Source: a virus | Taxonomy: Duplodnaviria; Caudoviricetes | Reading direction: 5' to 3' (one strand) | Virus record (IMG/VR): IMGVR_UViG_3300033153_005402 | Location: 1-49,356 of that record | DNA length: 49,356 nucleotides | Shown here: positions 1-49,356 of the stretch, one piece after another | Layout: the number at the start of each line of letters is the position of its first letter | How positions within the stretch are numbered: position 1 is the first letter of the stretch | The notes under the pieces: model-generated | The model's database searches: none | Told to the model about the DNA's origin: nothing | The model's input: the letters and a program-made list of their open reading frames with translations, nothing else | Position numbers and translations under genes: made by a program

Positions 1-114
1 AGCTGTTCCCCCCGCTATTGTTTCCTCGGAATCTACCAAAAATCTTTCATTGTCGGATCTAGTTAATACTGCCCCGGCGGGAATAATCGATCCGTTGTTG
101 CCGGTCGCCTCTAC
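1..114. repeat. Terminal direct repeat, left copy (circular assembly overlap)
   Basis: Bases 1-114 are identical to 49243-49356, and the baseplate J reading frame continues across the join. Confidence 0.95.
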
Positions 115-384
115 CGTTCCCGTTGCCTTGGTAGCTGGTTTTCTTTCAACCCCTCTTTGGGATGCATGTTTTTCTAGTTCCTCGGTTTGGGCCGTCTGAA
201 TAAATACCTGTTTCTCAATAGTCTTTAATGCTCCATAGTTTCCATGAATTGCCCCGGCATGATCCTTGTTTAAAATAGATAACGTTCCATCTATCAATCT
301 GGTATCCGCACCCTCTAATTTACTATCGTAATTAGTTTTTCCCCTGCTAATTAATTCGTCTAATGTTGGTCTTTCAAATGGCAT
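1..384 (-). CDS. Baseplate J-like protein (Mu gp47), N-terminal part, continuing at 49242..48199
   Basis: ATG at 384 gives MPFERPTLDELISRG...HAGAIHGNYG...RGVERKPATKATG, a typical gp47 N-terminus. It is open to base 1 and in frame with the 48199 ORF. Missed by the ORF track. Confidence 0.9.
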   Translation of the reverse strand, partial: MPFERPTLDELISRGKTNYDSKLEGADTRLIDGTLSILNKDHAGAIHGNYGALKTIEKQVFIQTAQTEELEKHASQRGVERKPATKATGTVEATGNNGSIIPAGAVLTRSDNERFLVDSEETIAGGTA

Positions 385-385
385 A

Positions 386-883
386 TTACTTTTCTCCCCA
401 TGGTATTTTAAACTGTATGGGTATTTTTTTCCCGCTATTTAACACAACATCAATAGTTACTTCCAGAGTTTGATAATCTACTTTCTCTGCCTCTATCAGA
501 ATTTCCTTTGCAAGTTTAATCTGAACCATCCACCGGAGACATTCCTTGATATCATCTTTGATAAGGTTAATATGTTCCTGGATAAGTTTTAGCCTTTTTC
601 TTAACCAGAGTTTGGAACCTATTTGGTGGCCCACTAATTCTGTAAAGTTGTCTCCCCACCACCCCCGGGGGTTGTCGGTTCCATCTGGGATCTCATCGTC
701 TGGATCCGCCCGTCTGTCGGTCATAACGGAAATATAAACATAAGTTTTAATAGTATCCTCGGTAACCAAATCCCCATTTTCTAAATCAATATCAACCTTT
801 CCCGTATTGGGATCTAGCACAAGGGCGATCTCCCGGGAGATTCTTGACCTCTCGGCAAAAGTTTTATCAATTGATTTAGCCAT
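386..883 (-). CDS. Baseplate protein, Mu gp46-like
   Basis: SVMTDRRA...RGWWGD...IGSKLWL motif, located between gp45 and gp47. Confidence 0.9.
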   Translation of the reverse strand: MAKSIDKTFAERSRISREIALVLDPNTGKVDIDLENGDLVTEDTIKTYVYISVMTDRRADPDDEIPDGTDNPRGWWGDNFTELVGHQIGSKLWLRKRLKLIQEHINLIKDDIKECLRWMVQIKLAKEILIEAEKVDYQTLEVTIDVVLNSGKKIPIQFKIPWGEK

Positions 884-1674
884 TACGTTGACCTCACAAA
901 AGGAGAACCACCGGCAATAACGCCACCGGCAACCGGATCGCCCACCCGGGCCACCGCTGGCCCTCCAATGCCGCCCAAGTCAACGGAGGGGGAGATAACG
1001 CTAACCTGGGGAGCAACAACGGAAACGCTGGCCCCCCCGTTTATATTTACTGCCCCTAAAACCGGGGCTAATAAGTTTATAGTTCCTAATGGTTGCATGG
1101 TTGTTAGTGTTATATTACCTAGTGCTGTATTTACTGCAACATTTAATTGGGAGTTGACGGTTACCCCACCGGCCGGAGTATTGACCACAACGTCACCACC
1201 GGCGGTAACAGTAGCATCTCCCGCCATTGTCGTATCAAGATCCCCGTCACCATCGATCTTAATATCGTTACCTTTTACCTCAATAGAACGATCCGCCTTG
1301 AATATAACCCTATGCCCAACCCCCTCCCCGTTCTTATGGGTATAAATACAGACCTCCCCGGGCTCTAGGCCTTTATGCCTGTGCCTCTTGTCATTGGTCG
1401 CTATTATGATAGCGTGATCCCTTTCTCCGGCCGGGAAAATGGCTATACATTCGGTATCCGGAAGGGGAACGGAATTGAACCCATATTCCTGGGGGCGTTC
1501 ACAATCCTCGGTTGTCTCGCCTGCCAGAAATCCCGCCTGGATTTTCTGCATACCCTCTGAATCCTTAACCAGATTGATTACACCCCTGCCAACCATTAGG
1601 ATAATCTTTTTAATCCAGGGGTCCATTATGGTCTGTACGTTCTTACCTAGTTCTCGCCAAGTGGTTTTTATCAT
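883..1674 (-). CDS. Baseplate spike, Mu gp45/gpV-like
   Basis: QEYGFNSVP, GERDHAIIIA and LEPGEVCIY motifs, a beta-repeat C-terminus, and the AVARVGD tip motif. Confidence 0.9.
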   Translation of the reverse strand: MIKTTWRELGKNVQTIMDPWIKKIILMVGRGVINLVKDSEGMQKIQAGFLAGETTEDCERPQEYGFNSVPLPDTECIAIFPAGERDHAIIIATNDKRHRHKGLEPGEVCIYTHKNGEGVGHRVIFKADRSIEVKGNDIKIDGDGDLDTTMAGDATVTAGGDVVVNTPAGGVTVNSQLNVAVNTALGNITLTTMQPLGTINLLAPVLGAVNINGGASVSVVAPQVSVISPSVDLGGIGGPAVARVGDPVAGGVIAGGSPFVRST

Positions 1675-19032: not shown

Positions 19033-19614
19033 CTATTGAAATAATGCGCCTTGTTTATCGTCCCTGTCTACCTGATTACCCCATACCTCCCAACCGGGAA
19101 CCCTCTTCCGGGAAAACAACTCTATCTTACGGGTCTGGGTTCCGAATAGTTTATCAATCAATTCCCGGAACAAATGCGGTTTGGCTGAATGGTCTAGGAC
19201 CGGGTGTAAATGAACCTGATGAATCCCGGCATTCTGCCGGGGAAGTCCCTTCCCCCGGGTTGCCAGCAAACACAATTCAGCATTGGCCCGGGTATATCTG
19301 CCCATGCCCATGAAGAGGCGGAACCCGCCCCCGGGATAAGTCTTAATCCAGGTAAAGGCGTTTGTCTTGTAGGTATACCCCCAGGCCTTGATAACGGCCA
19401 ATCCTTCCGCTAATAGGGGCATTGTAACCCAACATAGTAAAACCGAATTCTCGGCCGCCAGGGAGGCAACAGGAAGGTTACAGATATCCTCAACCCCCAT
19501 GCAAGGGTAATGGGATTCCGCCCCGCCCCCATGTGATTTTGATTTATCGTTGTAGCTCCAGGGCGGATCGGCCAAAACAATATCAAACTTCCCTTCTATC
19601 CCTTCTAAATTCAT
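19033..19614 (-). CDS. MT-A70 family adenine methyltransferase
   Basis: VLADPPW, AWGYTYKT, GRYTRANAELCLL, HSAKP and IELFSR...GWEVWGNQ motifs. Confidence 0.93.
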   Translation of the reverse strand: MNLEGIEGKFDIVLADPPWSYNDKSKSHGGGAESHYPCMGVEDICNLPVASLAAENSVLLCWVTMPLLAEGLAVIKAWGYTYKTNAFTWIKTYPGGGFRLFMGMGRYTRANAELCLLATRGKGLPRQNAGIHQVHLHPVLDHSAKPHLFRELIDKLFGTQTRKIELFSRKRVPGWEVWGNQVDRDDKQGALFQ

Positions 19615-27399: not shown

Positions 27400-27449
27400 G
27401 AAAGAAATACTTAGCCTATTGTGGCTTTCCGTTGCCGGAAAACCGCCCC

Positions 27450-31546: not shown

Positions 31547-31547
31547 C

Positions 31548-32060: not shown

Positions 32061-32061
32061 C

Positions 32062-33249: not shown

Positions 33250-33282
33250 AGATTCTTTAACACTTTGGAAAGGGATTTAAAC

Positions 33283-34726: not shown

Positions 34727-35907
34727 CCAAAACAGAATCAATCAAGAATGAAATCGCAATGTTTGACGAATCCACAAAGGATCTAGAGTTGGTAAAGATT
34801 GCGGCCGCCCATAAGGGCCTTCAAAGATCAATGGCCATAGCAACGGCGGTCAAACAGATCCGGAATTTCTTTCTGAAACCAGAAATTAACGCCATGCTGA
34901 AATCATTACAGAATAACCGCCTGGGTTTTCTGACTGATAAAGAGAACGGATATGATGGCAACGTTCTGGCAACGGTCGCAACTGAGGCCCGGTTACAGGG
35001 GCTCTCCCTGACCGGCAACGAATTAAATATTATCTCCGGTAACTGCTATGTTACTAAAGAAGGGTTTAAACGGAAGGTCCGGGATTACCCGGGTTTAACC
35101 AAACTAAAGAAAACCATTGCTATCAAATCATTTTCTAAAACCGTTTCGGTTATTTCTTTTAAATTTGAATATGAGTTGAACGGTAAACCTCAACCCGTTT
35201 ACGTTGGTGAAATAGAAATGGATTGCAATAACTATACCTCCAGGGATGCGGTTTATGGCAAGGGGGAAAGAAAGGCACTGGCCCGGTTATATGAATTGAT
35301 TGATGATAGCGGGATCACCCTGACAGACGGGGAAGTTAAAGACGTTCAGGCAACGGTAAGAGATACCAAACCTGATCCGGTCGATAACAAAGGTTTTGAA
35401 GAAAGAACATCTGTTAAAACTCCTGCCCCTGAAAAAGAATTAAACCCGGAACCGGAGGGAGAGGCCATTGATGCTAGTTTTGAGGTTGTCCCAGATCCGG
35501 AACCAGAACCCATGCCGGAGGGGGAGGCCGCCCCACCCCAGGATCAGGGGGAAATGATTGAAGAGGAAATGATTGATACCCCCCCGGAGGTTGTCGGGCC
35601 AACAACAGAACCACCCCCGGAACCGGCAAAGGAAAAAGTACCACCCGGGGGATTACCGGAAGATCCCCAGGCCCGGGAGGATGCCATAAAAAAGATAATG
35701 AAAGAAACTGGTTTGCCCAAATCCGTATTTTTACCAAGAGGTAAAGGCAAGTTCCCCAAACAATCTCTTTATGAATTAGGTTGGACCGAAACCGGAACAG
35801 AATACCTAGAGATATGTTTGGAAATGCCGGATAAGAACGTTAATAAAACTGAGAAATCAGCAATTAGAATTATCATGAAATATATTGATCATGCCGTCAA
35901 TGGGTAG
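34723..35907 (+). CDS. Putative single-strand annealing protein (RecT/Bet-like) with an acidic Pro-rich linker
   Basis: EARLQGL...NELNIISGNCYVTKEGF motif, directly downstream of the exonuclease. Confidence 0.55.
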   Translation: MTKTESIKNEIAMFDESTKDLELVKIAAAHKGLQRSMAIATAVKQIRNFFLKPEINAMLKSLQNNRLGFLTDKENGYDGNVLATVATEARLQGLSLTGNELNIISGNCYVTKEGFKRKVRDYPGLTKLKKTIAIKSFSKTVSVISFKFEYELNGKPQPVYVGEIEMDCNNYTSRDAVYGKGERKALARLYELIDDSGITLTDGEVKDVQATVRDTKPDPVDNKGFEERTSVKTPAPEKELNPEPEGEAIDASFEVVPDPEPEPMPEGEAAPPQDQGEMIEEEMIDTPPEVVGPTTEPPPEPAKEKVPPGGLPEDPQAREDAIKKIMKETGLPKSVFLPRGKGKFPKQSLYELGWTETGTEYLEICLEMPDKNVNKTEKSAIRIIMKYIDHAVNG

Positions 35908-36046
35908 AGGGGCCGGGATAATATAGTATAATTGGTCGGGCCGGGTTACCCCACGATCTCCTGTTGCTACCGGCCCCCCAATTATATTTTGCCACTAAAA
36001 GGGTTTACTGTAAGATAGGTATTATAAACATAACAAAGGGGTAAAC

Positions 36047-36568
36047 ATGATAGGGGATATTATAGTTTTAAATGTTGCGGAAAGAAAACTATGTGAGTAC
36101 ATAGCAAAGGTACGGGATTTAGAAAACAAACAGGCGGGAGTTGAAAACCAGAAACGATCCTCCCGTTCTGATTTTGAGGTTAACCGCCAGGGCTATGGGG
36201 CGGAATTATCCTTTGCCAGTATGTTTAATGTTTATCCGGATTTCTCAACTACTCTTAAATCAAAACGTTTTAAAACAGATGGCCATGATGCGGTTTTACC
36301 TAATGGAACAAGGATTGATGTTAAGTCCCAGAGATCCGCCTATAAAGGTTTGTTCCTGCATCCCGTTCATGATATGAGGGGCAATGAAATCGTTTACCAT
36401 AATTGTGATCTGTTCTGCTACTTCTCCGGGGATTTTCCCCGTTATACTTTTGCCGGTTTCGTTGCGGTATCAGTAATGATGAGAGAGAAAAACAAGGGTA
36501 GGTATTTCTCAAGGGATCAGTATGGTTTTCCGTCCGGAGATTTGCTAGAATTGGATCAGTTACTTTGA
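36047..36568 (+). CDS. Orphan PD-(D/E)XK restriction-endonuclease-like protein
   Basis: GYGAELSF...DGHD...IDVKS pattern, standalone between a hairpin and a terminator. Confidence 0.6.
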   Translation: MIGDIIVLNVAERKLCEYIAKVRDLENKQAGVENQKRSSRSDFEVNRQGYGAELSFASMFNVYPDFSTTLKSKRFKTDGHDAVLPNGTRIDVKSQRSAYKGLFLHPVHDMRGNEIVYHNCDLFCYFSGDFPRYTFAGFVAVSVMMREKNKGRYFSRDQYGFPSGDLLELDQLL

Positions 36569-36704
36569 TAATAAAAAGGCAATCGCCTATGGAATACCGG
36601 CCCTTGTGGCCGGAGTTAATCCCTTCTATTTTGGCCCCTGGTTTCGGGCAGGCGGCTACATTTTAAAATTCCATTAAATCCTTTTTACATACATGTTTTG
36701 TGCT

Positions 36705-36734
36705 ACCCCCGGATCGTCTGCCGGGGGTTTTTTT
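36705..36734 (+). terminator. Intrinsic terminator
   Basis: ACCCCCGG-ATCGTCTG-CCGGGGGT followed by a T-run. Confidence 0.8.
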
Positions 36735-37346
36735 ATTGGGCTGATTTTGTTATGATCGTTTTGTGGCGGAGTTATAAATGGTACCGTTTCTATCTCCAGT
36801 AGTGGGTCAGGCCGCCCATGCGTTAGGGAATCAACCCTTTGCCACGATTTTTTTATTTCCACAAAACCCTGTTGATAACCTGGGCCGAAACTGTTACCCA
36901 GGGAAACGCCGCCTGTATTGGATTCTAAGGGCCTTTGACTAGCCCGTGAATGTTATCTTGCCTGTTGGCCTGCTACCCCCCCTGTTTTTCCCCGGACATA
37001 AAGGCAGACCATAAGGAATTGGTTTCACCTGGGCGGAAATTTCCGCATTTCTCCGGAGAATTTCGGAAAAACGCCGGGAACCCAGATTGCCCCAACATGA
37101 CCGCCCGGTCATGTTTTTGGCCCCCCAGGTTGGCACCAGAGAAACCCCCGGGGTATCCCATGACTGAAAACCCATTGCCGGTATTGGCGACCGCCAGGGG
37201 CCATTTAAACGATTACATAACCTGTTGGTATTAAAGGAATAGAAAATTATCTCCTAAATACCTGGGAAATATACAGGTTATATGCTGTCAAATAATATCT
37301 TTTTGGAATGATAACCATTTGGTTTATATGGTCTTATAGTTGGTGA

Positions 37347-37379
37347 TATGTATATATATACATAATAATATGGTATACT
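37347..37379 (+). promoter_or_regulatory. Extended -10 promoter with a palindromic operator
   Basis: TGGTATACT at 37371-37379, and the perfect palindrome TATGTATATATATACATA at 37347-37364. Confidence 0.55.
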
Positions 37380-37404
37380 ATTAATAGAAAGAAAGGGGTT
37401 AACT

Positions 37405-37752
37405 ATGAAACAAAGAAACTGCCAGCATTGCAAAAAAGAGTTGGTGAGCAAACCCTACAAGGGAACCTGGGATTACTGTTCGGCATGTTGCGACCGCCTT
37501 GAGGCCCTGGAGGATCTAATCCAGGAACAGCTAAATGATAATCTCCATAAGGAAAATGAAGAGGATGCCAACGGCGAAAAATGGATTTCAGTTTCCGGAG
37601 ATTTCGAGATGACGATAACCGATCACACCAAAGAAGAGGTAAGGGAGGTTTTTGATAACTGGATATCAAAAGAGATTGAGGATTCCGGTTACTACTGGTC
37701 CTATGTTGAAATGAAAGACAACGTTTATAACTGGTACGTTGACCAAAGATAA
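37405..37752 (+). CDS. Zn-finger hypothetical protein
   Basis: CQHC...CSAC motif, GAAAGGGG RBS. Confidence 0.7.
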   Translation: MKQRNCQHCKKELVSKPYKGTWDYCSACCDRLEALEDLIQEQLNDNLHKENEEDANGEKWISVSGDFEMTITDHTKEEVREVFDNWISKEIEDSGYYWSYVEMKDNVYNWYVDQR

Positions 37753-37765
37753 AGGGGGATTAACT

Positions 37766-37972
37766 ATGGCATATCAAGAAAGGTCTGGGTTTTGTGACAC
37801 CTGCAAAAAACAGGTAATGGTTAGAAGGGCGGGGACAAGTCATTTGTTGCATTTGATTTTAACCTGTTTAACCATGGGCCTGTGGTTAATAGTCTGGTTA
37901 CTATCTTCCGTCAAAGTAGGCGGCTGGCGTTGTACTAATTGCGGTAGCGTTGTTAAAAAGAACATAGGCTAA
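37766..37972 (+). CDS. Zn-ribbon membrane protein (LITAF-like architecture)
   Basis: CDTC - hydrophobic HLLHLILTCLTMGLWLIVW - CTNCG. Confidence 0.72.
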   Translation: MAYQERSGFCDTCKKQVMVRRAGTSHLLHLILTCLTMGLWLIVWLLSSVKVGGWRCTNCGSVVKKNIG

Positions 37973-37985
37973 AGGGGGGTTAATA

Positions 37986-38264
37986 ATGATTACTCAAGAG
38001 GATTTAAAACGGTATGCAAAACTAGAAAAGGCGGCGGCGGAATACAAGGAATTGAGAGAAAAGATTATTGAGGAATTGGAATTGGGATGGATGCCAAAGA
38101 AAGGCAAGTTAGGTATTGAATGGGGCCGCCATATAGTGAGGTCTGTGAAATGGCGTAATATTGTTAAGAGGTTAAAGGGGGAGGAATACTGTAAAAAACA
38201 AATGAAAAAGGCCTCTGAGTCTTACCGCTATACAATTAAGGTATTCAGAAAGGCCAAGGTTTAA
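37986..38264 (+). CDS. Basic hypothetical protein
   Basis: RBS and operon packing. Confidence 0.68.
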   Translation: MITQEDLKRYAKLEKAAAEYKELREKIIEELELGWMPKKGKLGIEWGRHIVRSVKWRNIVKRLKGEEYCKKQMKKASESYRYTIKVFRKAKV

Positions 38265-38359
38265 TCATGGTTGCCCCCCGGCCAACGGGTTTATACTACC
38301 ACCTTTTCACGTTGCAACCGGGGGCGGCCGCCTTACATAAACATATCAAGGGGGATATC

Positions 38360-38518
38360 ATGAACATAAAAACATTAAGACTGTTACAACTAAAGGCCCT
38401 GTCACTGGCCAACGATTGGCCGCCAGAGGTAAGGGAATACCACAAAGAGGAATTAACGGATCTCTCCATTGGGGATGCCGCAACCATAGAAACAATATTG
38501 GGGGTTTCAAATGACTAA
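38360..38518 (+). CDS. Hypothetical protein
   Basis: AAGGGGG RBS before the ATG at 38360. Confidence 0.5.
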   Translation: MNIKTLRLLQLKALSLANDWPPEVREYHKEELTDLSIGDAATIETILGVSND

Positions 38519-38735
38519 ACCAGTTAACAACAGATGCGATCACATTCCGCAAAGGACAATAGAGAATATCTATTTCCCAGACGGCCGCCTAATTCAAGAG
38601 GTCCGGGAATGGTGCCGCCTAAAGGAAATGTCTCTCTCTGGGTTTATCCGTGAGGCACTAAAGAAAGAGTTGGCCCGGGTAGGGAAAAAGGAACCGGCGG
38701 CCGCCAAGGAAATCAAGGCCCGGATATACAAATAA
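38511..38735 (+). CDS. Ribbon-helix-helix (Arc/CopG-like) regulator
   Basis: IENIYFP beta strand followed by LIQEVREWCRLKEMSLSGFIREAL. Confidence 0.7.
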   Translation: MTKPVNNRCDHIPQRTIENIYFPDGRLIQEVREWCRLKEMSLSGFIREALKKELARVGKKEPAAAKEIKARIYK

Positions 38736-38759
38736 AAAAGACGGGGCCGAAACCCCGCC
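38734..38759 (-). terminator. Terminator at the convergence of the two arms
   Basis: Minus strand GGCGGGG-TTTCGG-CCCCGTC-TTTTTT. Confidence 0.7.
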
Positions 38760-38784
38760 TAGCACAACTCATGAAAGACATTCT

Positions 38785-39063
38785 TTATTTACTTTTTTTA
38801 ACGTGTTTTTTGTATGCCTTATGAATTGTTTTTCCTACTCCCTTTTTCTTGTCAACACTGGATTCAATCGCTCCCGCCATTTTATCCCCGTAGGAATGGC
38901 CTCCATTCTTTCTTGATTGAATAACCTCCATTACATGGATTAAACCTTTCTTCCAACCCCGGGCCCGTACCCATTGATAGATTGTGGTAATGGCTAGGAT
39001 TACACCCCCCAGGATTTCAGCATTGCCTCTGGTCATATATTTATCAATACCCCCGATTTCCAT
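38785..39063 (-). CDS. Holin-like single-TM protein
   Basis: N-terminal TM and basic C-terminus, at the end of the late cassette. Confidence 0.5.
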   Translation of the reverse strand: MEIGGIDKYMTRGNAEILGGVILAITTIYQWVRARGWKKGLIHVMEVIQSRKNGGHSYGDKMAGAIESSVDKKKGVGKTIHKAYKKHVKKSK

Positions 39064-39064
39064 A

Positions 39065-39541
39065 TTACACCCTTTTCTTTTTCTTGGGCGGGACCAGAAC
39101 AGCTATCAGGGCATCGAGTTTACCGCCTGCCATTTTTCCGCCCTTGTTATAAACAAACATTGCCGCAAAGATCATTAGAATGAATTCATACCAGACCATG
39201 GGTTTTTCTCCCCGGGCCTCCCGCTGTTCGTTCTCCTGGGCAAAGGCAGAATGAAATCGGCTAGTACCGGCCGCCACTTCGATATAATCAACCACCCCGT
39301 CACCATTGATATCTAAATCCGCCATGGTGATCCCCATGGCCTCTAGTTCCTCTTTCTTTCCCTGGGCCTGCATTTCAACAGCGGCAAGGGCCGCCTCTTT
39401 GCCTTTATCAAGAATAAACTTTCCATTCTCATCCCAATAGGCCTTTAGTTCTCCCTTAACGATATCAACCATTTTATCCCTGGTTATACCGCAACCGGAA
39501 ACCAACAAACAAACAACACCGATCAACAATAATTTTCTCAT
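39065..39541 (-). CDS. Lipoprotein with an EF-hand-like loop and C-terminal TM (u-spanin-like topology)
   Basis: Lipobox LVSGC, loop DINGDGVVDYIE and TM WYEFILMIFAAMFVY. Confidence 0.6.
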   Translation of the reverse strand: MRKLLLIGVVCLLVSGCGITRDKMVDIVKGELKAYWDENGKFILDKGKEAALAAVEMQAQGKKEELEAMGITMADLDINGDGVVDYIEVAAGTSRFHSAFAQENEQREARGEKPMVWYEFILMIFAAMFVYNKGGKMAGGKLDALIAVLVPPKKKKRV

Positions 39542-39542
39542 G

Positions 39543-39827
39543 TCAAATACCTTTCATTGCCCCACCGGCAATAGTTACGACAACTCGCCCAACCATATCT
39601 AAGGTTGCCCGGGCTGTCTCAGTTTTTTCTATTTCCTTATTGATTAAAAGATCTGCCTTTTCTAGTTCTTCCCATTCGGCATACTTGGCCTGGATTTCAT
39701 TTATCTTAGCCTCCCGGCCGTCAACCAGGGCGGTAAAGAATGTGGCCAATGCCCGGGCCATTGGTAATATTAATTCCCTGTTCTCCCTGGCGTGTTTAAT
39801 GAAGTCGTTGATCTCTTTGTAGTTCAT
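39543..39827 (-). CDS. Helical hypothetical protein in the lysis-position cassette
   Basis: Operon packing, amphipathic C-terminus. Confidence 0.6.
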   Translation of the reverse strand: MNYKEINDFIKHARENRELILPMARALATFFTALVDGREAKINEIQAKYAEWEELEKADLLINKEIEKTETARATLDMVGRVVVTIAGGAMKGI

Positions 39828-40096
39828 TCTGGTTTATCCTTTTTGCCTTCTGCCCAAACCCTAAGAGATTTTATATTATTTTTCAATAGCAATGCTGTTC
39901 CCAATCGGCGTTCCGTTCCCTGGTCCGGGTAAAGTTTCTCCCTGGCCATTTGCTGATCAAAGTACTTGCTGGCTATTGGTTCCATTTTAATCATGGCCTT
40001 TTTAATATTGCCCGGCGGAAGGTAGCAACCTCCCAGGTAGAGGCAAACAACCCCGAACAAGATCCATCTAAAGTATCTCTTTTTCGATATTCTCAT
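39824..40096 (-). CDS. Small lipoprotein
   Basis: Basic n-region, hydrophobic h-region and lipobox LGGC. Confidence 0.65.
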   Translation of the reverse strand: MRISKKRYFRWILFGVVCLYLGGCYLPPGNIKKAMIKMEPIASKYFDQQMAREKLYPDQGTERRLGTALLLKNNIKSLRVWAEGKKDKPE

Positions 40097-40502
40097 TTAA
40101 CAGAACGTCCAATCTCTGGGATTGAGTTTCAAGTTTTTTTTCCGTATATTGCAGAACCACCCGGGAAAGATCCTCCCTGGTAATCGGTTTGGTTATTATC
40201 GCTAGGGGTTCTTTTAATCCTCTAAATTTCATTTCCTCTTTTACTCTCCTGGTTTCCAAGGCGGTTAAAACTATTATCTGGTATCTATGCCCGTTCAGTT
40301 TGTCCATGAATTCGTAACCGTTCATTAGGGGCATCATGATATCTAATATAATTAAATCTACCTCCCCGCCATGGTCCTTTAGGTACTCAATACTCGGCAC
40401 TGGATTGGAGAATTCAACGGCATTAAATCCCATTGATTCGATATGTTTATTTAGAATCGTTCTTAATGCGGAATCATCTTCTATTATGACTATGTTTTTC
40501 AT
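40068..40502 (-). CDS. Single-domain response regulator (CheY-like receiver)
   Basis: IIEDD, DLIILDIMMPLMNGYEF, IVLTA and ITKP: all phosphoacceptor-site residues present. Confidence 0.92.
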   Translation of the reverse strand: MKNIVIIEDDSALRTILNKHIESMGFNAVEFSNPVPSIEYLKDHGGEVDLIILDIMMPLMNGYEFMDKLNGHRYQIIVLTALETRRVKEEMKFRGLKEPLAIITKPITREDLSRVVLQYTEKKLETQSQRLDVLLNENIEKEIL

Positions 40503-40503
40503 G

Positions 40504-40815
40504 TTATCCCTTATTCATGTAGCTGGCCATTGCGCCCACCAATGCCGATAAAATTAACATCAGGATACCGCTAATCAGTTTCCAGGTTTTATCGTTTCTC
40601 TCTTTTAGTCTCTCCCTTATGTCCTTTATGGCCTTTTCGCTCTGGCAAACCCTGGCCTTTAGCAATTCATTTTCAGTATAGAGTTCTGTTTGATAGTCTT
40701 TGATTTCCTTGATATCTTCTTTTAGCTCCCGGCTGTTTTCTTTCCCGTCATCAAGTCGCCTGAATAGGGTGTCTATCTTTCCAATTATCTCTATTAGTTT
40801 TTCATTGCTAGGCAT
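40504..40815 (-). CDS. Coiled-coil protein with a C-terminal TM (holin/XhlA-like)
   Basis: Coiled coil followed by WKLISGILMLILSALVGAMA. Confidence 0.6.
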   Translation of the reverse strand: MPSNEKLIEIIGKIDTLFRRLDDGKENSRELKEDIKEIKDYQTELYTENELLKARVCQSEKAIKDIRERLKERNDKTWKLISGILMLILSALVGAMASYMNKG

Positions 40816-40834
40816 TGCTATATAATACCCCAAT

Positions 40835-40865
40835 AAAAAAGAGGGGGGAACAGAATTCCCCCCCC
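40835..40865 (-). terminator. Intrinsic terminator after the tail-fibre region
   Basis: Minus strand GGGGGGAA-TTCTG-TTCCCCCC-TCTTTTTT. Confidence 0.72.
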
Positions 40866-40889
40866 GTTGGGTTTAATTACAAACTAAGA

Positions 40890-42806
40890 TTAAACAACCT
40901 TAGAAAGAACAAACATTTCTCCATTGACTGCAACACCAATACCGGCGGCCTCATCGTTAGTAATAATGGCCTTTACTCTTGGCCCGGTTCCGGATACCGC
41001 ATCATAACCCGAGAGATCATGTAATGCGCCAACGTCAAAGGCATCGCCAAAGGTTGTACCGTCTGGAGAGTACTTTAACTGAACGCCAGATCCGGCGGCC
41101 TTTGCGGCACCCGTGGTTTTCATGGCCTCAATATTGAGAACCTGTAACCTGTTGGCACTGGCAATAAGACTAAATGCGCCATCTTCGCTAATATATTCAC
41201 CAGCGGCGGCGTATGTCTTGGTTGCCTTTGTCCACAATTTCACATTGTCAATAAACAGATTGCCAACAAATTTATTTCCAAAATTAACATCTGTGTATCT
41301 TATGCCTTCACTGACCAATAATGATTTATCCATAACCCCCGCTGATGCGGTATAAAACCGGCCCTGGTATACCACTTTGTCATTGATGTACATTTTTACC
41401 ATGGTGTAATATTCGCCCGGTCTTTCGGGGGCGGCAACCCATGTATCAAATGATCCCAATTCAATGCGTATTTTCATGGCGGCACCAATGAAGGCAGTAA
41501 TGTCAATACTCGGGGCCTGATTCCAGGTAGAGCCGATAAGAGTATCAGCTGCATCAAAACAACCGATAAATCCCATGGTTCGGGCGGCCCCCTGAAATGG
41601 CCTCATGAAATAATCACTTCCAGATTTTACTATCGTATACCAGAATTCCAAACCAAAAGGCCAGTTTGCCTGAGTTGCATCAGCACACCAGAATTGCTGG
41701 CCACCAAACATAGTACCCGGAACGGTCCCAAGAGTTGCCGCTGAATAATCAGCCTCATGTTCAAAACCAATAACTCCGATATCTGTTGGAGTCCATAAAA
41801 TTTCAAATGGATTGGTTAGAAAGTTGTCAAGATACATTAGGCTAGTACCACCCGATCCGCCTGCGGAAACTGCCTTTAATCTTCCAGCATCTATGGAAAG
41901 AGTTGTTCCAGAGGCAACGGTATCATAATCAACCCCACCCCCCGTTTCTGTAAAATCAATATCAAGATCAGCTGTGCTAAGAGTAGAAAGAACGGCTGGC
42001 AATGATCCTCTATTTCCAACTACCTCAACCATGAAATCTGATCCCAATCCAGCCAAATCAATTTCATCTAATCCGATAATATATGATTCAACTGAACAAC
42101 AGGCATCAACAAGTTTTAGAATGCCAACCCTAGCATCAAGGGCCCCGGAAGACATATCTATAAGGGATGAAATATCAACCTTGTTTTTCTTTATGTCGCT
42201 AACGGCATCATCTAAATCTTTTGCCAATTCTTTATCAACTAGATTATTAAATCCCAACTTGCCAACATAACCGGGCGTTTGATCAATCTTTGTCACCAAA
42301 CCAGATTCAACGGTTAATCTCATAACTAAAACAGAACCATTAACGATCCGGGATTCATCCGTATTAGCGTTAATAGTCATGGTGGAACGGTTGGCCAAAT
42401 CTGCTACCACTTCTATTGACATTCCCTCTTGTTTTCGTTGATATTCAACAACCAATCCAGTAACTAAAACATAGGCGGGGCCAGTATAATCAACAGGAAA
42501 ACCACCCTTGGCCAGCACATCAATTTTCCTCATGGTTGCGGTCATGAAAACTGCATCGTCAGGATCGGGAAGAGTAAAAGAACCATTACCAATAATAGAT
42601 CCGCCTGCATCGATAGCAAGGCCACGGGTCAACCAAACATATTTACTGTTTGGGCTGTCCAAATAACCCTTATATCCATTCACAATACCAGTTGAAAACA
42701 ACTGATAGAGAAGGCCAGTTGATCTAACTACCCGGTTATGATCCGGAACCTTTTTCTTTAATCCATCTACTCCAAATACTTCCACCTCGGTTGTCGGTTG
42801 TACCAT
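40890..42806 (-). CDS. Large putative tail/receptor-binding protein with a lectin-like beta-sandwich region
   Basis: 638 aa, beta-rich, with ConA/LamG-like VKMYINDKVV...LFIDNVKLW pattern, in the tail-fibre locus. Confidence 0.55.
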   Translation of the reverse strand: MVQPTTEVEVFGVDGLKKKVPDHNRVVRSTGLLYQLFSTGIVNGYKGYLDSPNSKYVWLTRGLAIDAGGSIIGNGSFTLPDPDDAVFMTATMRKIDVLAKGGFPVDYTGPAYVLVTGLVVEYQRKQEGMSIEVVADLANRSTMTINANTDESRIVNGSVLVMRLTVESGLVTKIDQTPGYVGKLGFNNLVDKELAKDLDDAVSDIKKNKVDISSLIDMSSGALDARVGILKLVDACCSVESYIIGLDEIDLAGLGSDFMVEVVGNRGSLPAVLSTLSTADLDIDFTETGGGVDYDTVASGTTLSIDAGRLKAVSAGGSGGTSLMYLDNFLTNPFEILWTPTDIGVIGFEHEADYSAATLGTVPGTMFGGQQFWCADATQANWPFGLEFWYTIVKSGSDYFMRPFQGAARTMGFIGCFDAADTLIGSTWNQAPSIDITAFIGAAMKIRIELGSFDTWVAAPERPGEYYTMVKMYINDKVVYQGRFYTASAGVMDKSLLVSEGIRYTDVNFGNKFVGNLFIDNVKLWTKATKTYAAAGEYISEDGAFSLIASANRLQVLNIEAMKTTGAAKAAGSGVQLKYSPDGTTFGDAFDVGALHDLSGYDAVSGTGPRVKAIITNDEAAGIGVAVNGEMFVLSKVV

Positions 42807-42898
42807 TTCAATGCCCCTTTCTTTAGCCGTTAGGCTGATTAAAAAGAATTAATTATCAATAGCCTGTAACATAACAGACTGTCGCTAACCGTCAATAA

Positions 42899-43090
42899 TT
42901 ATTCCGTCATTTCCGCTATCACAAAATCTCTAACAGTATGGGAAGAATTGTGGCCGCCGGGATTAGGGCAACAAGTATGGGGGGTAGCTGGCGCCACCCC
43001 CGTACACTTGCTGGTATTGTCAATATCAGTTTGAGATTCCCTGCAATAATCTTGGCATGTCTCACACCATACCCTAACCGTATACGCCAT
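42899..43090 (-). CDS. Small Cys/His-rich protein related to the N-terminus of the upstream fibre
   Basis: YTVRVWCET...HTCCPN...HTV versus IYRMWCTD...PTECPNNAGHSI, AAAGGA RBS. Confidence 0.6.
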   Translation of the reverse strand: MAYTVRVWCETCQDYCRESQTDIDNTSKCTGVAPATPHTCCPNPGGHNSSHTVRDFVIAEMTE

Positions 43091-43100
43091 GATTTATCCT

Positions 43101-44657
43101 TTACTCACTTAGTAGGATTGCCGAAACGTTACAGGCGGAAGGACCATCAAAATATTTGATCTGAGTCTCAAACATGGCCGCCCCCGCTGGTTTGTCGGCT
43201 AAGGTTCCCAGGTCCATTAACGTGGGTTCATTAACCGTAATATCGGATTTCTCTACAATAACCTTAGCATTAGTTAGATCATAAATTCTAAGGCCAACTG
43301 TCTTACCAGAAGTACCGGCCCAAACAATCGCCTTGATTGTTGCCAAATTAAAATCAGTAGTTCCCGGAAAAATGAACCGATGAACAACAGCATAATTAGC
43401 AACGTTCTTGCCAAGGTAAGGATTACTGCCGTCTGAACAATCAATATGCAACCTAGCGGTAATTCCACCGGGTTTATTGGTAAGGTTGTCCCAATGTACT
43501 TGGGCCTGCCCGGAGGTCTGCATATTTGTTTTAGTATAATGATCGTCGGTATGGCCATGATCGCCCTGGGCAACTTGGCTAGATCCTGTACCTACCGGCA
43601 TCTGAGCAAAGGCCAGCAATCCCGATCCATTAAGTTGAGGGAATTTATCGGCGGTCGCTGTCAAAACATGATCGGTTAAAAGAGGATAACGGGCATCGCC
43701 CCGGGCATCGGTATGGTAAATCGAATGGTCATCATCCGATAATCCCGCAAGATTTCCATGATCCACTGTTTCACCAAATGATTGCCATGCTGAATCGCCA
43801 TAGCGGATCTGTAAATTTTCGTCTAAAACAGAAGTAACCATTCCCTCTGATGGAACCGTGAAATCCCAACCCGGATCGGTGAATTGCGCTATCTGGCCAT
43901 CCTTGCCGGACCAATCGCCACTACCACCGGCCGCCACAAGGTAACGGTCACCCAATGTTTCGCCACCTGGAGGGGCGGTCAAGTCTCTATCTATTACTGG
44001 CAATTTCCAGATAACACCCTGGACCGCTGAGTCAACATATCCCATAGTTGCAAGGTGGGCATCTGCTGTTGGAGTCACACCGGAGACAACGCCACTAAAG
44101 GCCCTGGTCCCGTCTGCCAGAGAGTATAAAGTATGATCGTCATCATCTTTGCCGGTCAATGCCCCGTGATCGTGATTGTGATCGCCTTGTGCAACCTGGG
44201 AGGAACCAGATCCAACGGGCATTTGTGCAAACGCTAGAAGGCCGGAACCGTCTAACTTCGGTAATTTGCCAGCCGTTGCGGTTAAAACAAAATCAGTTTT
44301 AACGTGATAATCTGAATTGTGGTCATGGGCTAATGCCGAATAGGTGGCATCGTGATTATGGGCAAGGGCTGAATAAGTCGCATCGTGATTATGGGCCAAT
44401 GCGGAATAGGTAGCGTCATGGTCATGACCGCTGGCCGAATATGCCGCATCATGATTGTGATCGCCTTCCGATATTTGCCCGGCCCCTGTGCCAAAATCTA
44501 AACTCGTATCCTCTTGAACAGCACTAATAGAGGCCTCTACTATTGAATGCCCCGCATTGTTTGGGCATTCCGTTGGTACGGATGAAACAAAATCCGTATA
44601 AACAAAATCCGCCTCATCTGTACACCACATTCGATAAATTATTTGTCCTGCCGCCAT
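43101..44657 (-). CDS. Tail fibre-like protein with HxH repeats and a DUF2793-like domain
   Basis: HNHDATYSALA repeats, and GDRYLVAAGGSGDWSGKDGQIA...PSEGM motif. Confidence 0.72.
   Translation of the reverse strand: MAAGQIIYRMWCTDEADFVYTDFVSSVPTECPNNAGHSIVEASISAVQEDTSLDFGTGAGQISEGDHNHDAAYSASGHDHDATYSALAHNHDATYSALAHNHDATYSALAHDHNSDYHVKTDFVLTATAGKLPKLDGSGLLAFAQMPVGSGSSQVAQGDHNHDHGALTGKDDDDHTLYSLADGTRAFSGVVSGVTPTADAHLATMGYVDSAVQGVIWKLPVIDRDLTAPPGGETLGDRYLVAAGGSGDWSGKDGQIAQFTDPGWDFTVPSEGMVTSVLDENLQIRYGDSAWQSFGETVDHGNLAGLSDDDHSIYHTDARGDARYPLLTDHVLTATADKFPQLNGSGLLAFAQMPVGTGSSQVAQGDHGHTDDHYTKTNMQTSGQAQVHWDNLTNKPGGITARLHIDCSDGSNPYLGKNVANYAVVHRFIFPGTTDFNLATIKAIVWAGTSGKTVGLRIYDLTNAKVIVEKSDITVNEPTLMDLGTLADKPAGAAMFETQIKYFDGPSACNVSAILLSE
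44318..44462 (-). repeat. Coding 33-bp tandem repeat (H[ND]HDA[TA]YSA[LS][AG] x4)
   Basis: Four 11-aa units with synonymous codon variation. Confidence 0.8.
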
Positions 44658-44680
44658 GTGTTACCCCCTTTGGTATTTGG

Positions 44681-45793
44681 CTAACTGGTTATCAAAACAC
44701 TTGATACACGTGCCGCCGCCGACTGAGAATTATATCTAACTTGAACCTCCCACATTGCCTTTCCTGCCGGGATTACTCCCGTTATCGGTAAGGTATGCAT
44801 CGTTGGTAATACGTCTGTAATGTTTAATTTCTGGGCTATGACTACCGCATTTGTAAAATCATAGATCATAATATCCTGGCCTCTAGATCCATTGCTGGTC
44901 CAGATGATAGCGGTAATATCAGAGGGAGTCATAAATGTTGAACCAGGAAAAACAAATCTATTAAGAGTTGTATAATTTACCGCTGATTTTGAAACGAATG
45001 GATTATTACCGTCATTCAGATCGATATTAAGAGCTAATCCCATACTTGAATGTGTATGATCCCCCTGGGCTACCTGATCCGATCCCGTTCCGATATCGCC
45101 ATTGGTTCCCAAGTTATCCTTTGTAACCTGTAGGGCGGCCTCCCCGTCTGTATATTTCGCATGGTGCGCCGATGCGTTACCCGCATGGGCGGTAATGTCT
45201 GAATCAATTTCTCCGGAAATATCAGAATAGGTTTTACTCCCCGCACCGTCCACAATGGCGATAGCAAGATCAACCCGATCCCCTGCCTCCCCTGAATCGT
45301 AATCAAGAACGGCCATATATTGAGGGTGATCGTTAGCGTCTAAATCATCGAGATTACTATGGGATACCAGGGTTGCCATTAACACCCAGGTTGATCCGTT
45401 GTGGATATAAATCTTGTTCTCATCTTCAACGGTCAGGGCGAATCCCTCATCTGGAATAACCTCTACCCAGGAAACGGTATCAAGATCATAGGTGTAAATA
45501 TAATCTGTTGTCCAACCGTTGGCCGTTGCCGATGCGATATAGCGATCCCCGTCTGAGGGACCAACCGGAAGATTAGGAGTAGGATCATAAATAGATAAAA
45601 CCGAATTCTGCCAATCAACACCGGAACCAGATCCGCCCCCGCCTGCCTCTATGGCCTCTTGAATATCTTCCCAGGTGACACTACCCCCGGCCCCGTCATC
45701 TAGGGATTCTGCTATATCAACCTTGCCGGAATTATTGGTATCGTATGTCTTTTTATCTAAATTTCCATCGTCAAATATTCCAGTATAACCCAT
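44681..45793 (-). CDS. Tail fibre-like protein, paralog of 43101..44657
   Basis: GDRYIA...PDEGF...DENKIY, VAQGDHTH, and the shared C-terminal RFVFPG...IYDFTN...WEVQ domain. Confidence 0.72.
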   Translation of the reverse strand: MGYTGIFDDGNLDKKTYDTNNSGKVDIAESLDDGAGGSVTWEDIQEAIEAGGGGSGSGVDWQNSVLSIYDPTPNLPVGPSDGDRYIASATANGWTTDYIYTYDLDTVSWVEVIPDEGFALTVEDENKIYIHNGSTWVLMATLVSHSNLDDLDANDHPQYMAVLDYDSGEAGDRVDLAIAIVDGAGSKTYSDISGEIDSDITAHAGNASAHHAKYTDGEAALQVTKDNLGTNGDIGTGSDQVAQGDHTHSSMGLALNIDLNDGNNPFVSKSAVNYTTLNRFVFPGSTFMTPSDITAIIWTSNGSRGQDIMIYDFTNAVVIAQKLNITDVLPTMHTLPITGVIPAGKAMWEVQVRYNSQSAAARVSSVLITS

Positions 45794-45810
45794 AGCAAAC
45801 CCCTTTCAGG

Positions 45811-46371
45811 TTAATATAACTGCAAACTCGTATTACTAAACGCTAGGGGCCCCTCTATGCCAAAATTAACTATTCCCTTCTGGTCCAATGAAGAGGAAAA
45901 GGTTATTTCCAAAAGGCCGTTTACCATGTCGCCACCAAAGATATCTAGTTTGCATAACTTGTCTGGAGTAATAATCAATGTGTCATCGTCACCGGCGGCG
46001 GTCTGATCAACATCGTCTTTTTTCTTTTGGATTTTAAGTTTAGCGGTTGAGGTTCCATTGGCCTCTAAATCCGGCACCCCATTAAAGGGGGTCTGGGTAT
46101 CACCAAGGGGAGTTGTTCCGTCTGATTCAAACCAAGAGGGAACATAGGTAATAACGCCACGGGCAACCCAATCAAAACTTGATCCATTCCAACTTGAAAG
46201 GGCGGGGTCACATTCTTTAGCGTCTGCCTCTTCCTCTGCCGGAACATCTCTCAGGGTAAAATCACCCTCTACGCCACCCTCTAGCGTCACACCATCCGCC
46301 AGGGTTGGCGGGGCTGGCCACTGTATAACATTTACAACCCCGTCATCAGAATTTCTGGTAATAACTTTCAT
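45811..46371 (-). CDS. Tail-fibre-locus protein (possible chaperone or Ig-like)
   Basis: Acidic, beta-rich, directly downstream of the gp49-like fibre. Confidence 0.5.
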   Translation of the reverse strand: MKVITRNSDDGVVNVIQWPAPPTLADGVTLEGGVEGDFTLRDVPAEEEADAKECDPALSSWNGSSFDWVARGVITYVPSWFESDGTTPLGDTQTPFNGVPDLEANGTSTAKLKIQKKKDDVDQTAAGDDDTLIITPDKLCKLDIFGGDMVNGLLEITFSSSLDQKGIVNFGIEGPLAFSNTSLQLY

Positions 46372-46384
46372 TTCTATTTCCCCT

Positions 46385-47158
46385 TTAACCTATTGCAGTC
46401 CATGCGTAAGTTCTAGTATTAACATTTCCGCGATTAGCGGCAACAGTAAAACTACCTGCCGCTTGAGCGGTAACATAATCATTAAGTCCATTACCGGCAC
46501 CATCCGAAGAATATACACCCATGGTATCAACGTGAAGACAAAAAACCTGTCCAGCCGGTGGATTGCCAACACCAAGTAAAACCGTTCTGGGCGTCCATGA
46601 TCCTCCAGTTGTAATGACACGGGAGGCGGCACCGTTACCAGTGTATGCGCCTGTGCGAATTCTAGCGTTATCAGCAGGAGCGGGAGATGAAACATCGGCC
46701 ATGGTCGCCAGAGGATTTGCCCCGGTCGGGGCATTAGCATTTTTCAGGGAGGCCTGTTCGTTTGCGGAAATATTCGCCAGATCATCCCAATCAATAGTTG
46801 ATGCCTCTATACTAGAATGATCCTCGTTTTCGTGATCGTTCTTGGTAAAGAAATAGTTGGCGGCGGTTGCGGGATAGGTAGCATCTTTTAAGGCGGCCGC
46901 AATATTAGCATCCATATCATTCAGATCTTCAAGATTCGCCGCCTCTACCTGAGTATCAGCTAATAAGGCAATAGCCGTTTTTAACTGGTCATAGTCGCCT
47001 TTAACCAATGATAGCCCGGCCTCTAATATCGCCTGGATAACGTTCTCCTGCGTATCGTTTGACCATGCGGCGGTTACCCTCGTTCCAAACAAACCAATAG
47101 AGGGATCGCCATCCTGAAAGAATCCCCCAACATTGTATAACCCGTCTATTCGATGCAT
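46385..47158 (-). CDS. Tail fibre, Mu gp49-like N-terminus
   Basis: MHRID...FQDGDP...TRVTAAWSNDTQE...QLKTAI motif, with C-terminal GAYTGNG...YAWTAIG. Confidence 0.85.
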   Translation of the reverse strand: MHRIDGLYNVGGFFQDGDPSIGLFGTRVTAAWSNDTQENVIQAILEAGLSLVKGDYDQLKTAIALLADTQVEAANLEDLNDMDANIAAALKDATYPATAANYFFTKNDHENEDHSSIEASTIDWDDLANISANEQASLKNANAPTGANPLATMADVSSPAPADNARIRTGAYTGNGAASRVITTGGSWTPRTVLLGVGNPPAGQVFCLHVDTMGVYSSDGAGNGLNDYVTAQAAGSFTVAANRGNVNTRTYAWTAIG

Positions 47159-47176
47159 ATCAGGCCCCCTTTATGG

Positions 47177-47557
47177 CTATGATTGTAAGTACCAAACCGA
47201 TCCGGCACAAAGGAATTTTTTGAATTCCCCTGGTGCAACCGTTCCGATAAGGGCGGGGGAATCATCTTTAACCAAGAGATTATTTGATCCGCCCTTGTTA
47301 ACAATAAAAAACTCTATGCCCGGGGCTGTTGCCTCATCCGGTAACTCTACATCCTGATCGCCGCCGGAGGCCTCCAATACCTGGATTCTTTCACTTGCCA
47401 GAACCAAGGTTTTCTTTGCCGTCAATACCTCTTCATTCTCTCCCGGGTAAACTGATACGGCAAGATTCCGCATCTTCTGGCCTGAGAGATCCCCCGCCTG
47501 CTGGCTGGTTAAGTCTGCTAGGATTTCTGAAAGTAATCTTTTGGTTTCCGGCATCAT
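47177..47557 (-). CDS. Small structural protein inserted between gp48 and the tail fibre
   Basis: AAAGGGG RBS, beta-rich VELPDEAT..GIEFFIVN pattern. Confidence 0.6.
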   Translation of the reverse strand: MMPETKRLLSEILADLTSQQAGDLSGQKMRNLAVSVYPGENEEVLTAKKTLVLASERIQVLEASGGDQDVELPDEATAPGIEFFIVNKGGSNNLLVKDDSPALIGTVAPGEFKKFLCAGSVWYLQS

Positions 47558-47566
47558 TCGCCCCCT

Positions 47567-48199
47567 TTAAAAGAATTCCGCAAAATCAAATTCCTCTGAA
47601 AATTCACTATATTGAAAGTCTAATGTAGTATGAGCTGGTTTTTGCCGCAAGAGATAACATTCCAAAACGGCGTTATCCCATTCGGCCAAGAAATCCCCAC
47701 AACCGCTAGTACCCACATGAAAATATAATATTGTTTTGGCCGGGGCCTGTACTGTCCAGTGATATCTAAAATCATTACTCAATAGGAAATCCCCGCTGGC
47801 GGCGAGTCCGACAATAAAGGCATCCCATTCTATTATTCGTATATCATACCCCAGGCGTTCCGCAAGAAAGACAAAGTATTCTCTTGAACCCCCACCCTCT
47901 GAAAACAACTTGGCGAAAACATCATTTCGCCTTTGCTGAAAATTATCGGACAAACCCAAACAACCATCGGGCAACCCCGCCATGGCCTCCCATTCTGGAA
48001 GTAATTCAAGAGTTGACCGGGGATCGGTTTCTGTTAAAAAATCCATCATTCGTGAATCAAAGGTTGCCAATTCAATAGCGGTCGCCTCTAATAATTTGGT
48101 TAATTTAGCATCCGGATCCCTGGTCCATGCCTGCCCGGAAGGCAATAACTCTTGGAGCAATCTTAGAAAGTCCTGTTCTGTTTTGCTAGTTATCGGCAT
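47567..48199 (-). CDS. Baseplate protein, Mu gp48/YmfQ (DUF2313)
   Basis: LLPSGQAW, ETDPRST.ELLPEWE...GLPD and LEC...KPAHT motifs. Confidence 0.92.
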   Translation of the reverse strand: MPITSKTEQDFLRLLQELLPSGQAWTRDPDAKLTKLLEATAIELATFDSRMMDFLTETDPRSTLELLPEWEAMAGLPDGCLGLSDNFQQRRNDVFAKLFSEGGGSREYFVFLAERLGYDIRIIEWDAFIVGLAASGDFLLSNDFRYHWTVQAPAKTILYFHVGTSGCGDFLAEWDNAVLECYLLRQKPAHTTLDFQYSEFSEEFDFAEFF

Positions 48200-49356
48200 T
48201 AGAAAGTAACCGTTCCCAGAGTTAGGATTTCATCGTTAGCAACGTTAATAAGGGAGGTTGGAGAATTGAGGATATGGGAGATTTCCCCTGGGGCCGCTGA
48301 TATCGCCTCTGATATCTGGGATAAATGAAGAGTACCGGCGGGAACCCCTTCCCTATCCAAAAGATCTTGGAGTTCTAATTCCACCTGGGCCTGGACCTCT
48401 GGGTTGTTAGGAGACAAGGAAATATCAAAGGCCTGGGAAATCGGTTTCAGAGGATAAACCAAAACAATAGCGGTTACTGGCCGTTTGAGATCAAGGTAAT
48501 CCTGGACCTCTTGAACCTCTGAGGTATTGGGAATAATAGCGGGGTTGATTATCTTTGCTGAAACATCGTCAATATCTCCAACAAAAGTTGAGTTTGCCTG
48601 CAAGTTAAAATCAACATTACCGGAACCCCCGGCCTTGATAGTTTCAGTATGAACCCCGTTAGCACTCGCCGCCGCACCATTCGTTGATCCCAGATAGGGG
48701 GTAACAGAACCAGCGGAATAATTACTTAGAGTAAATGTAACTTCATATTCTGCCCCCGCCCTTACCCTATCCTCTTGGGATAAATCACTGTTGCCTGTTT
48801 GGATACCGTCACAACTCGCCACCCCGGCCCCGATGCTCCAACCTGTTCCCAATATCCAAGGATCTGCAACCCCAAAGTCACCATTAAGAATTGTGTTTAA
48901 TCCCAAGTGGTTCCCGCCGGTCTTGTTATCCTTCATGAAGGAAACGCCAACAGTACCGGCCCCCCAATATTGCGGAACCACCCAAACCCGGGTTACTCCC
49001 TCGATCTCCAATGCCCATCTTTCATAATCATTTACTGCCCCCGCCATGGGAATATTTTGAACCAGAGCCAACAACCGGGCCCTTAATTCATCGTCTGTTT
49101 CTTCCGGGTTGCCGTCTGCTATTCCCCCGGCATTAACCGTTACCTCTGAATTCACACCACCAATGGGGGAAACAAATCCAAGGGCTGATCCCTCTTCTGT
49201 ATTCCCGGAAGAACCGGCGGTTTCTGCTGTCAATGCTAGGGTAGCTGTTCCCCCCGCTATTGTTTCCTCGGAATCTACCAAAAATCTTTCATTGTCGGAT
49301 CTAGTTAATACTGCCCCGGCGGGAATAATCGATCCGTTGTTGCCGGTCGCCTCTAC
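48199..49356 (-). CDS. Baseplate J-like protein (Mu gp47), C-terminal part, with a CBM-like insertion
   Basis: ETDDELRAR, DYERWALEIEGVTRVWV, GAGTV, RPVTA and LSQISEAIS motifs. Joins 1..384 to give about 475 aa. Confidence 0.92.
   Translation of the reverse strand, partial: VEATGNNGSIIPAGAVLTRSDNERFLVDSEETIAGGTATLALTAETAGSSGNTEEGSALGFVSPIGGVNSEVTVNAGGIADGNPEETDDELRARLLALVQNIPMAGAVNDYERWALEIEGVTRVWVVPQYWGAGTVGVSFMKDNKTGGNHLGLNTILNGDFGVADPWILGTGWSIGAGVASCDGIQTGNSDLSQEDRVRAGAEYEVTFTLSNYSAGSVTPYLGSTNGAAASANGVHTETIKAGGSGNVDFNLQANSTFVGDIDDVSAKIINPAIIPNTSEVQEVQDYLDLKRPVTAIVLVYPLKPISQAFDISLSPNNPEVQAQVELELQDLLDREGVPAGTLHLSQISEAISAAPGEISHILNSPTSLINVANDEILTLGTVTF
49243..49356. repeat. Terminal direct repeat, right copy
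   Basis: Identical to 1-114. Confidence 0.95.

Follow-up and report, generated by a model that had tools for sequence, protein, structure and literature searches.

Why should a phage genome lack one asymmetric four-base word on both of its strands? We address this question for the IMG/VR virus record IMGVR_UViG_3300033153_005402 (Duplodnaviria; Caudoviricetes), whose 49,356 nucleotides were analyzed whole (positions 1-49356, hereafter the window), and for the word AAGC with its reverse complement GCTT. An initial annotation, made by eye, had reported no AAGC and two GCTT sites where a few hundred sites would be expected. Exact k-mer counting in both orientations bears this out: AAGC is absent and GCTT occurs twice, at 27424 and 46461, against expectations of 162.6 for the two words together under a maximal-order Markov model, approximately 288 under a shuffle of synonymous codons and approximately 370 from base composition alone. 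The Markov ratio of 0.012 (z = -16) is the lowest among all 4-mers, and AAGC/GCTT is the sole 4-mer in the window at a ratio below 0.1. The word has thus been removed almost totally from both strands.

A selective purge at the level of DNA

All 16 flanking contexts of AAGC are empty save for the two surviving sites, and the union of longer known restriction sites is thereby ruled out as the cause. Words one base away had been described as abundant. They are indeed present in numbers (TAGC 151, GCTA 137, CAGC 46, GCTG 106, GAGC 32 and GCTC 43), although GAGC and CAGC reach only 0.43 and 0.61 of their expectation in the window.

Synonymous codons were permuted within 86 genes (89 open reading frames (ORFs) minus three doubtful overlaps) in 100 shuffles that kept the proteins and the codon usage. 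On the coding strands this null predicts 187 AAGC and 101 GCTT, where 1 and 0 are observed; the minimum over the 100 shuffles is at least 8 in each reading frame, and the loss affects all three frames. Both orientations are purged within the leftward gene blocks (1-27218 and 38736-49242) as well as within the rightward block (27522-38735). The same pressure is visible at codon junctions: C never comes after any of the 472 AAG codons, T never after any of the 131 GCT codons, and TT never after any of the 509 xGC codons (cysteine, glycine, serine and arginine), while lysine, glutamate and glutamine codons ahead of a codon starting with GC end in AG in 176 of 177 cases, against 1018 of 2645 (39%) elsewhere.

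These data bear directly on explanations that need no selection on DNA, namely codon-pair bias, a toxin that cuts messenger RNA, or mutational decay. In their favor, AGC/GCT stands lowest among the 3-mers as well (0.55). However, codon bias is excluded by the codon shuffle (1 vs approximately 288), and an agent acting on messenger RNA would strike one orientation only, whereas AAGC and its complement are both gone from the coding strands in all three frames, which places the pressure on DNA. As for mutation, the word is escaped by several synonymous routes, A-to-G and T-to-C changes among them, and the use of both points to selection rather than to one mutational process; deamination was rejected as the cause on the A-to-G escape and because AAGT, into which C deamination would turn the word, shows no enrichment (0.74). 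We therefore regard this group of explanations as scarcely credible. The purge is selective and acts at the level of DNA, independently of frame, strand and codon usage; its presence in all frames, both orientations and both kinds of gene block agrees with the DNA-level selection proposed at the outset.

A probable host defense, the breadth of the purge and rival explanations

The explanation that we favor, and consider reasonably probable, is a host restriction system with a 4-base-pair (bp) asymmetric target that is recognized in either orientation, stable enough for the purge to become near-complete. A long-lived host enzyme, most likely an asymmetric-site Type II restriction-modification system, would attack unmarked AAGC/GCTT in either orientation, and the phage would have removed the word by synonymous changes on both strands. 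Such an agent would be host-encoded and act on double-stranded DNA, and it would need no inverted pairs of sites, since loss under a Type III enzyme would spare one of the two orientations, the pattern that other words show in the window. Type III restriction was itself rejected as the cause because AAGC is lost on both genome strands (0 on the plus strand against approximately 160 expected, and 2 on the minus strand against approximately 210). Host modification would permit the survival of a phage that retains two sites, the first presumably held by an overlapping regulatory repeat and the second brought in with a tail-fiber segment.

AAGC does not stand alone in being lost; restriction sites have been purged widely, and its depletion is the strongest. 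Patterns were taken from Biopython's REBASE list, many of them overlapping, and compared (where the expectation was at least 6) with a codon shuffle that already forbids AAGC; 52 of the 515 fall below 0.15 of expectation. Among them (observed/expected) are GCWGC (2/62), CGWCG (1/29), GRCGYC (1/28) and GCCGGC (0/15), together with the asymmetric sites GAGACC (0/21), GAAGAC (2/24), CTGAAG (1/20), CTCCTC (1/20), ACTGGG (1/19), CCCAGC (1/16) and AAGGAG (3/37). CGCG stands at 10/78, and coding DNA contains no site at all for 22 of the 63 six-base palindromes, several of these with low expectation. General palindrome avoidance had been denied because CCGG, GGCC and GATC are common, and that much holds; CGCG, GCWGC, CGWCG and the 22 six-base palindromes are nonetheless avoided. 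This parallel loss of many known restriction sites suggests that the phage answers host restriction by deleting sites. Gapped motifs resembling Type I sites contribute GCGNGC (0/31) and GCGNAC (1/32), with no others purged.

Three further patterns accompany the purge. The palindromes that are not avoided comprise all four centered on GGCC as well as CCCGGG, TCCGGA, GAATTC, AGATCT, GATATC, CCATGG and TCATGA, most others being avoided, and a methylase of the host or of the phage may protect them. Some words are low on one strand only: GAACT (1 vs 28), GACTC (0 vs 24) and GGACT (0 vs 23) are depleted on the plus strand in both gene blocks, and CGAGG (1 vs 31), CCTCCG (0 vs 16) and GGTGG (12 vs 81) are likewise one-sided, a pattern that predicts several host specificities of Type III character. 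Purged on both strands, with no matching enzyme noted, are CGAGC (1/27), CACTC (5/44), CGTGC (3/21) and CGCAG (5/49).

Several results weigh against a host restriction system. The DNA-level purge supports the host-defense branch of the initial annotation, but the comparison with REBASE that it had suggested gave no match: Biopython's list (1088 enzymes with 618 distinct sites, without methylome-only motifs) has no entry whose whole site is the 4-bp AAGC. Those listed sites that contain AAGC or GCTT (HindIII, AAGCTT; Bco11035III, GAAGCY; Cje265V, GCTTMC; and Rgo13296IV) cover only some contexts. Systematic avoidance is also reported to be lacking, in the accessible parts of two sources, for sites of Type I, IIG and III (PMC6286503) and for asymmetric IIG/S sites (bioRxiv 10.64898/2026.09.23.753747). 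A second AAGC-purged lineage was not found among the loci compared, neither in 80 terminase loci nor in 23 loci at 35-40% identity from a sheath scan of metagenomes, none of which is AAGC-poor, and matches to isolate phages (capsid and sheath, at most 44% identity) gave no host name. The count of 52 purged patterns has no random-word control.

Background rates point the same way. The controls are fragments selected by homology, partly redundant and not a random sample; among the 185 loci of at least 4 kilobases (kb) used for the 4-mer test, an asymmetric 4-mer falls below 0.05 of expectation in one and a palindromic 4-mer in 34. The ratio of AAGC itself has a minimum of 0.48 and a median of 0.95 across these 185. 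The breadth of the purge is ordinary: per 20 kb the window lacks approximately 0.2 of the 6-bp palindromes that could be tested, where the median of 43 controls is 0.225, and purges confined to one strand are seen in 9 of 44 controls as well. Background rates therefore single out no cause for AAGC; the unusual feature of this genome is the loss of an asymmetric 4-mer. The single control with such a loss (L095:1-4687; CATC 0/19 over 4.7 kb) is a viral contig with a related terminase from which CATC/GATG is absent where 19 are expected, and CATC is also avoided by the archaeal virus Hardycor1, to which we return below.

Defense could also involve a host system tied to DNA modification, whether by phosphorothioate or otherwise (Dnd, Ssp, BREX type 4 or Dpd), which would either restrict unmarked sites or mark the phage DNA for cutting in the next host. 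Asymmetric consensus words of 4 bases are best documented for phosphorothioate systems, those given in the accessible text of two reports being GAAC/GTTC, GAGC/GCTC, NCTC, GAAG and GACG (PMC12914056, PMC11931770), and the depleted GAGC is one base off AAGC. However, AAGC is absent from the main texts of both reports, and according to the accessible text of the first (PMC12914056) modification reaches only a small share of the consensus sites. The GAGC dip is partly due to CGAGC and other longer words; GAAC, GAGC, CCTC, CTTC and CGTC are purged in 0 of the 185 controls (lowest ratios 0.43-0.66; hosts unknown); and the published Dpd motif, CxGCxG, is not AAGC. We judge this class of system unlikely to be the agent.

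Another candidate agent is a host toxin or nickase that recognizes four bases of single-stranded DNA, such as a DarT-like ADP-ribosyltransferase. A reader of this type could do without symmetry, and its selection would fall on both strands, which is what the window shows. The DarT motif, TNTC, has four bases. Known escapes from DarT proceed through anti-DarT proteins or polymerase changes rather than loss of the motif, and words of the TCTC type are not purged in the window (CCTC 397/362), so that an agent of this kind appears very unlikely.

Surviving sites and the nucleases of the phage

The two sites that escaped the purge, and the genes that bear on its cause, are placed in Table 1.

Table 1. 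Positions of the surviving sites and of the genes and elements discussed
Feature	Position	Strand	Remarks
Complete circular phage genome	1..49356		49,242 unique bases, 114-base terminal overlap
MT-A70 family DNA methyltransferase	19033..19614	-	DPPW motif; upstream of terminase genes
Surviving site 1, GCTT	27424..27427	+	Divergent control region, between two sigma70-like promoter matches
Perfect inverted repeat	27426..27441		6-bp arms, 4-bp spacer; overlaps surviving site 1; sole perfect copy in the window
HNH endonuclease, second phage nuclease	32851..33243	+	phrog_1571
DUF5843 protein	36047..36568	+	Small PD-(D/E)XK nuclease fold; conserved E53, D81, D91, K93
Short tail-fiber gene	46385..47158	-	phrog_2617
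Surviving site 2, GCTT	46461..46464	+	Coding-strand AAGC spanning a Gln and an Ala codon; close to the C-terminal tip encoded by the short tail-fiber gene

The inverted repeat that overlaps the first survivor lies just upstream of the rightward -35 box (promoter match 27450-27479); it is a predicted operator, which may constrain or shield the site. Of the 45 sites that remain of 22 purged motifs, 6 lie in the gene that carries the second survivor, against 0.7 expected (p = 7e-5, for a motif list picked after the depletion was seen), and this tail-fiber segment is likely a recent import that is still unpurged. Such clustering of leftover sites indicates that gaining a site was survivable, which is easier to reconcile with a host system that leaks and places a protective mark than with an enzyme made by the phage in every infection.

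The latter possibility had formed the second branch of the initial annotation, as a phage nuclease that cuts host DNA, with 36047..36568 as the candidate. In the wider form considered here, DUF5843 or the HNH enzyme would cleave AAGC/GCTT in the DNA of the host or of competitors, and the phage would be safe for want of the word; in a variant, the nuclease would cut only methylated DNA and the phage would have purged the target of a host methylase. In favor of the DUF5843 protein, its four conserved residues are invariant in 60 homologues, leaving the PD-(D/E)XK core intact, and its predicted structure is confident (predicted local distance difference test (pLDDT) 94), with NhoI, Eco15I and PvuII as top Foldseek matches; the nearest solved folds are those of the BisI family (NhoI, Eco15I), PvuII, I-Ssp6803I and Hjc. 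No relative exceeds 44% identity, so a private specificity is possible, and the family is almost wholly viral, with one locus in GTDB genomes. Constant self-selection would, moreover, account for AAGC being the only 4-mer almost wholly lost.

However, AAGC avoidance is found in 0 of 75 viral loci with DUF5843 homologues, although these are distant (at most 44% identical to the window protein), and in 0 of 7 MT-A70 loci, so that the proposed co-occurrence with either gene receives no support. At least one 4-mer falls below 0.15 in 26 of 54 DUF5843 loci and in 20 of 46 terminase loci, which is no excess, again with distant homologues. With homologues this distant, the co-occurrence test no more than lowers the odds of a phage nuclease. 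Hardycor1 purges CAGC on both strands without a DUF5843 gene, and the tolerance of an imported site is a better fit to the leaky host system with a protective mark. We consider a phage-encoded nuclease unlikely, and equally unlikely is the specific proposal that DUF5843 is a 4-base cutter of host or competitor DNA at AAGC/GCTT that would tell self from non-self by the absence of the word, as restriction without modification. A weak match to the DUF5843 protein was seen in the giant virus Mollyvirus Mo1-1 (BTJB01000001.1:463986-464258, E 6e-4). The approximately 835 bases 3' of the gene (36569-37404) hold only weak ORFs and several short inverted repeats, with no Rfam match.

The window is a complete circular myophage genome, a singleton without a close relative, and a second contig (L167) independently spans the junction of its ends. 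By PHROGs and Pfam matches it encodes a Mu-like contractile tail, an HK97-type head, a PBSX terminase, a DnaD-like initiator, RuvC and recombination genes besides the methylase and nucleases of Table 1; no integrase match (PHROGs, Pfam), transfer RNA or Rfam RNA was found in it. The nearest relatives of the terminase are 46-51% identical, with nothing between 51% and 100% identity, and capsid and fiber scans returned only fragments of the same phage at 99.9-100% identity (L002, L167). Inside the gene for the DnaD-like initiator, 12-base tandem repeats encoding TEGH repeats (26748-26836) are likely replication-origin iterons. A cluster in the lysis position (38785-40833) combines one holin-like and two lipoprotein-like genes with an isolated receiver domain of a response regulator (40068-40502); it contains no endolysin match in PHROGs or Pfam, and no homologue of the response regulator was found at E 1e-15. 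In the 20 bases upstream of the 86 genes, the ribosome-binding sites read AAGG (41/86) or AGGG (40/86), with AAGGG in 30 and AGGAG in 1 of 86. Either the purge of AAGGAG and GAGGAG may have imposed a form that relies on wobble pairing, or the host may have a variant 16S tail.

Comparison with known systems

The genome predicts a DNA-targeting activity with AAGC/GCTT specificity that is matched by no enzyme in the checked list, and a 4-bp asymmetric cutter or modifier would be both rare and useful as a reagent. The purge also offers a handle for finding the host, by way of long-read methylomes marked at AAGC or GCTT, and for now it stands as a strong footprint of a familiar process. Literature searches on AAGC (with phage avoidance, methylation motif and methylome) and on self-avoided phage nucleases returned no report of the motif or of such a mechanism, supplements and most subscription papers not being covered. 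In the searched parts of five articles the word appears only inside AAGCTT (PMC11347163, PMC10164549, PMC12707154, PMC6211672, PMC8919816), and it is unmentioned in the main text of PMC6286503.

Asymmetric 4-bp Type II sites exist, as shown by AciI/SsiI (CCGC), MnlI (CCTC) and Sth132I (CCCG), so such a target is possible, but these words are not purged in the window (CCGC 402/301, CCTC 397/362, CCCG 434/343). One-strand avoidance, as described for T7 and EcoP15I and for Type III/MANTIS in the accessible part of a preprint (bioRxiv 10.64898/2026.09.23.753747), matches GAACT, GACTC and GGACT here, whereas AAGC differs in being purged in both orientations. In the accessible part of the survey by Rusinov et al. 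(2018, PMC6286503), elimination (ratio below 0.1) affects 7.1% of orthodox Type II sites and less than 0.5% of sites of other types; as in the window, where many Type II sites are purged, site elimination there occurs in non-temperate double-stranded DNA phages. Both-strand asymmetric purges are seldom seen in surveys, yet the window, Hardycor1 and L095 (CATC) all have them, which makes the agent a testable question.

The closest parallel is Hardycor1 (MT152698). Table 2 of its description gives ratios of 0.01 for CAGC, 0.03 for CATC and 0.11 for CCAG, attributed to host defense (Dyall-Smith et al. 2021, PMC7911831); on recomputation we obtained 1/101 for CAGC and 7/214 for CATC, on both strands, and found no DUF5843 gene. 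Like the window, it has nearly lost asymmetric tetramers on both strands within a wide palindrome purge, and it shares a lytic layout without integrase and an adenine methylase gene beside the terminase. Unlike the window, it is an archaeal virus of 68% GC in which AAGC is normal (88/72), its methylase belongs to PF05869 rather than MT-A70, and it has lost three asymmetric and three palindromic tetramers, whereas AAGC is the only 4-mer below 0.1 here. That CAGC, CATC, CCAG and AAGC are purged in unrelated viruses may reflect one undescribed class of host defense, which we hold more likely than a DUF5843 cutter. Both-strand loss of asymmetric tetramers is thus already in print, and the word AAGC looks new; the purge described here is real, strong and rare in form, yet a variant of known restriction-site avoidance.

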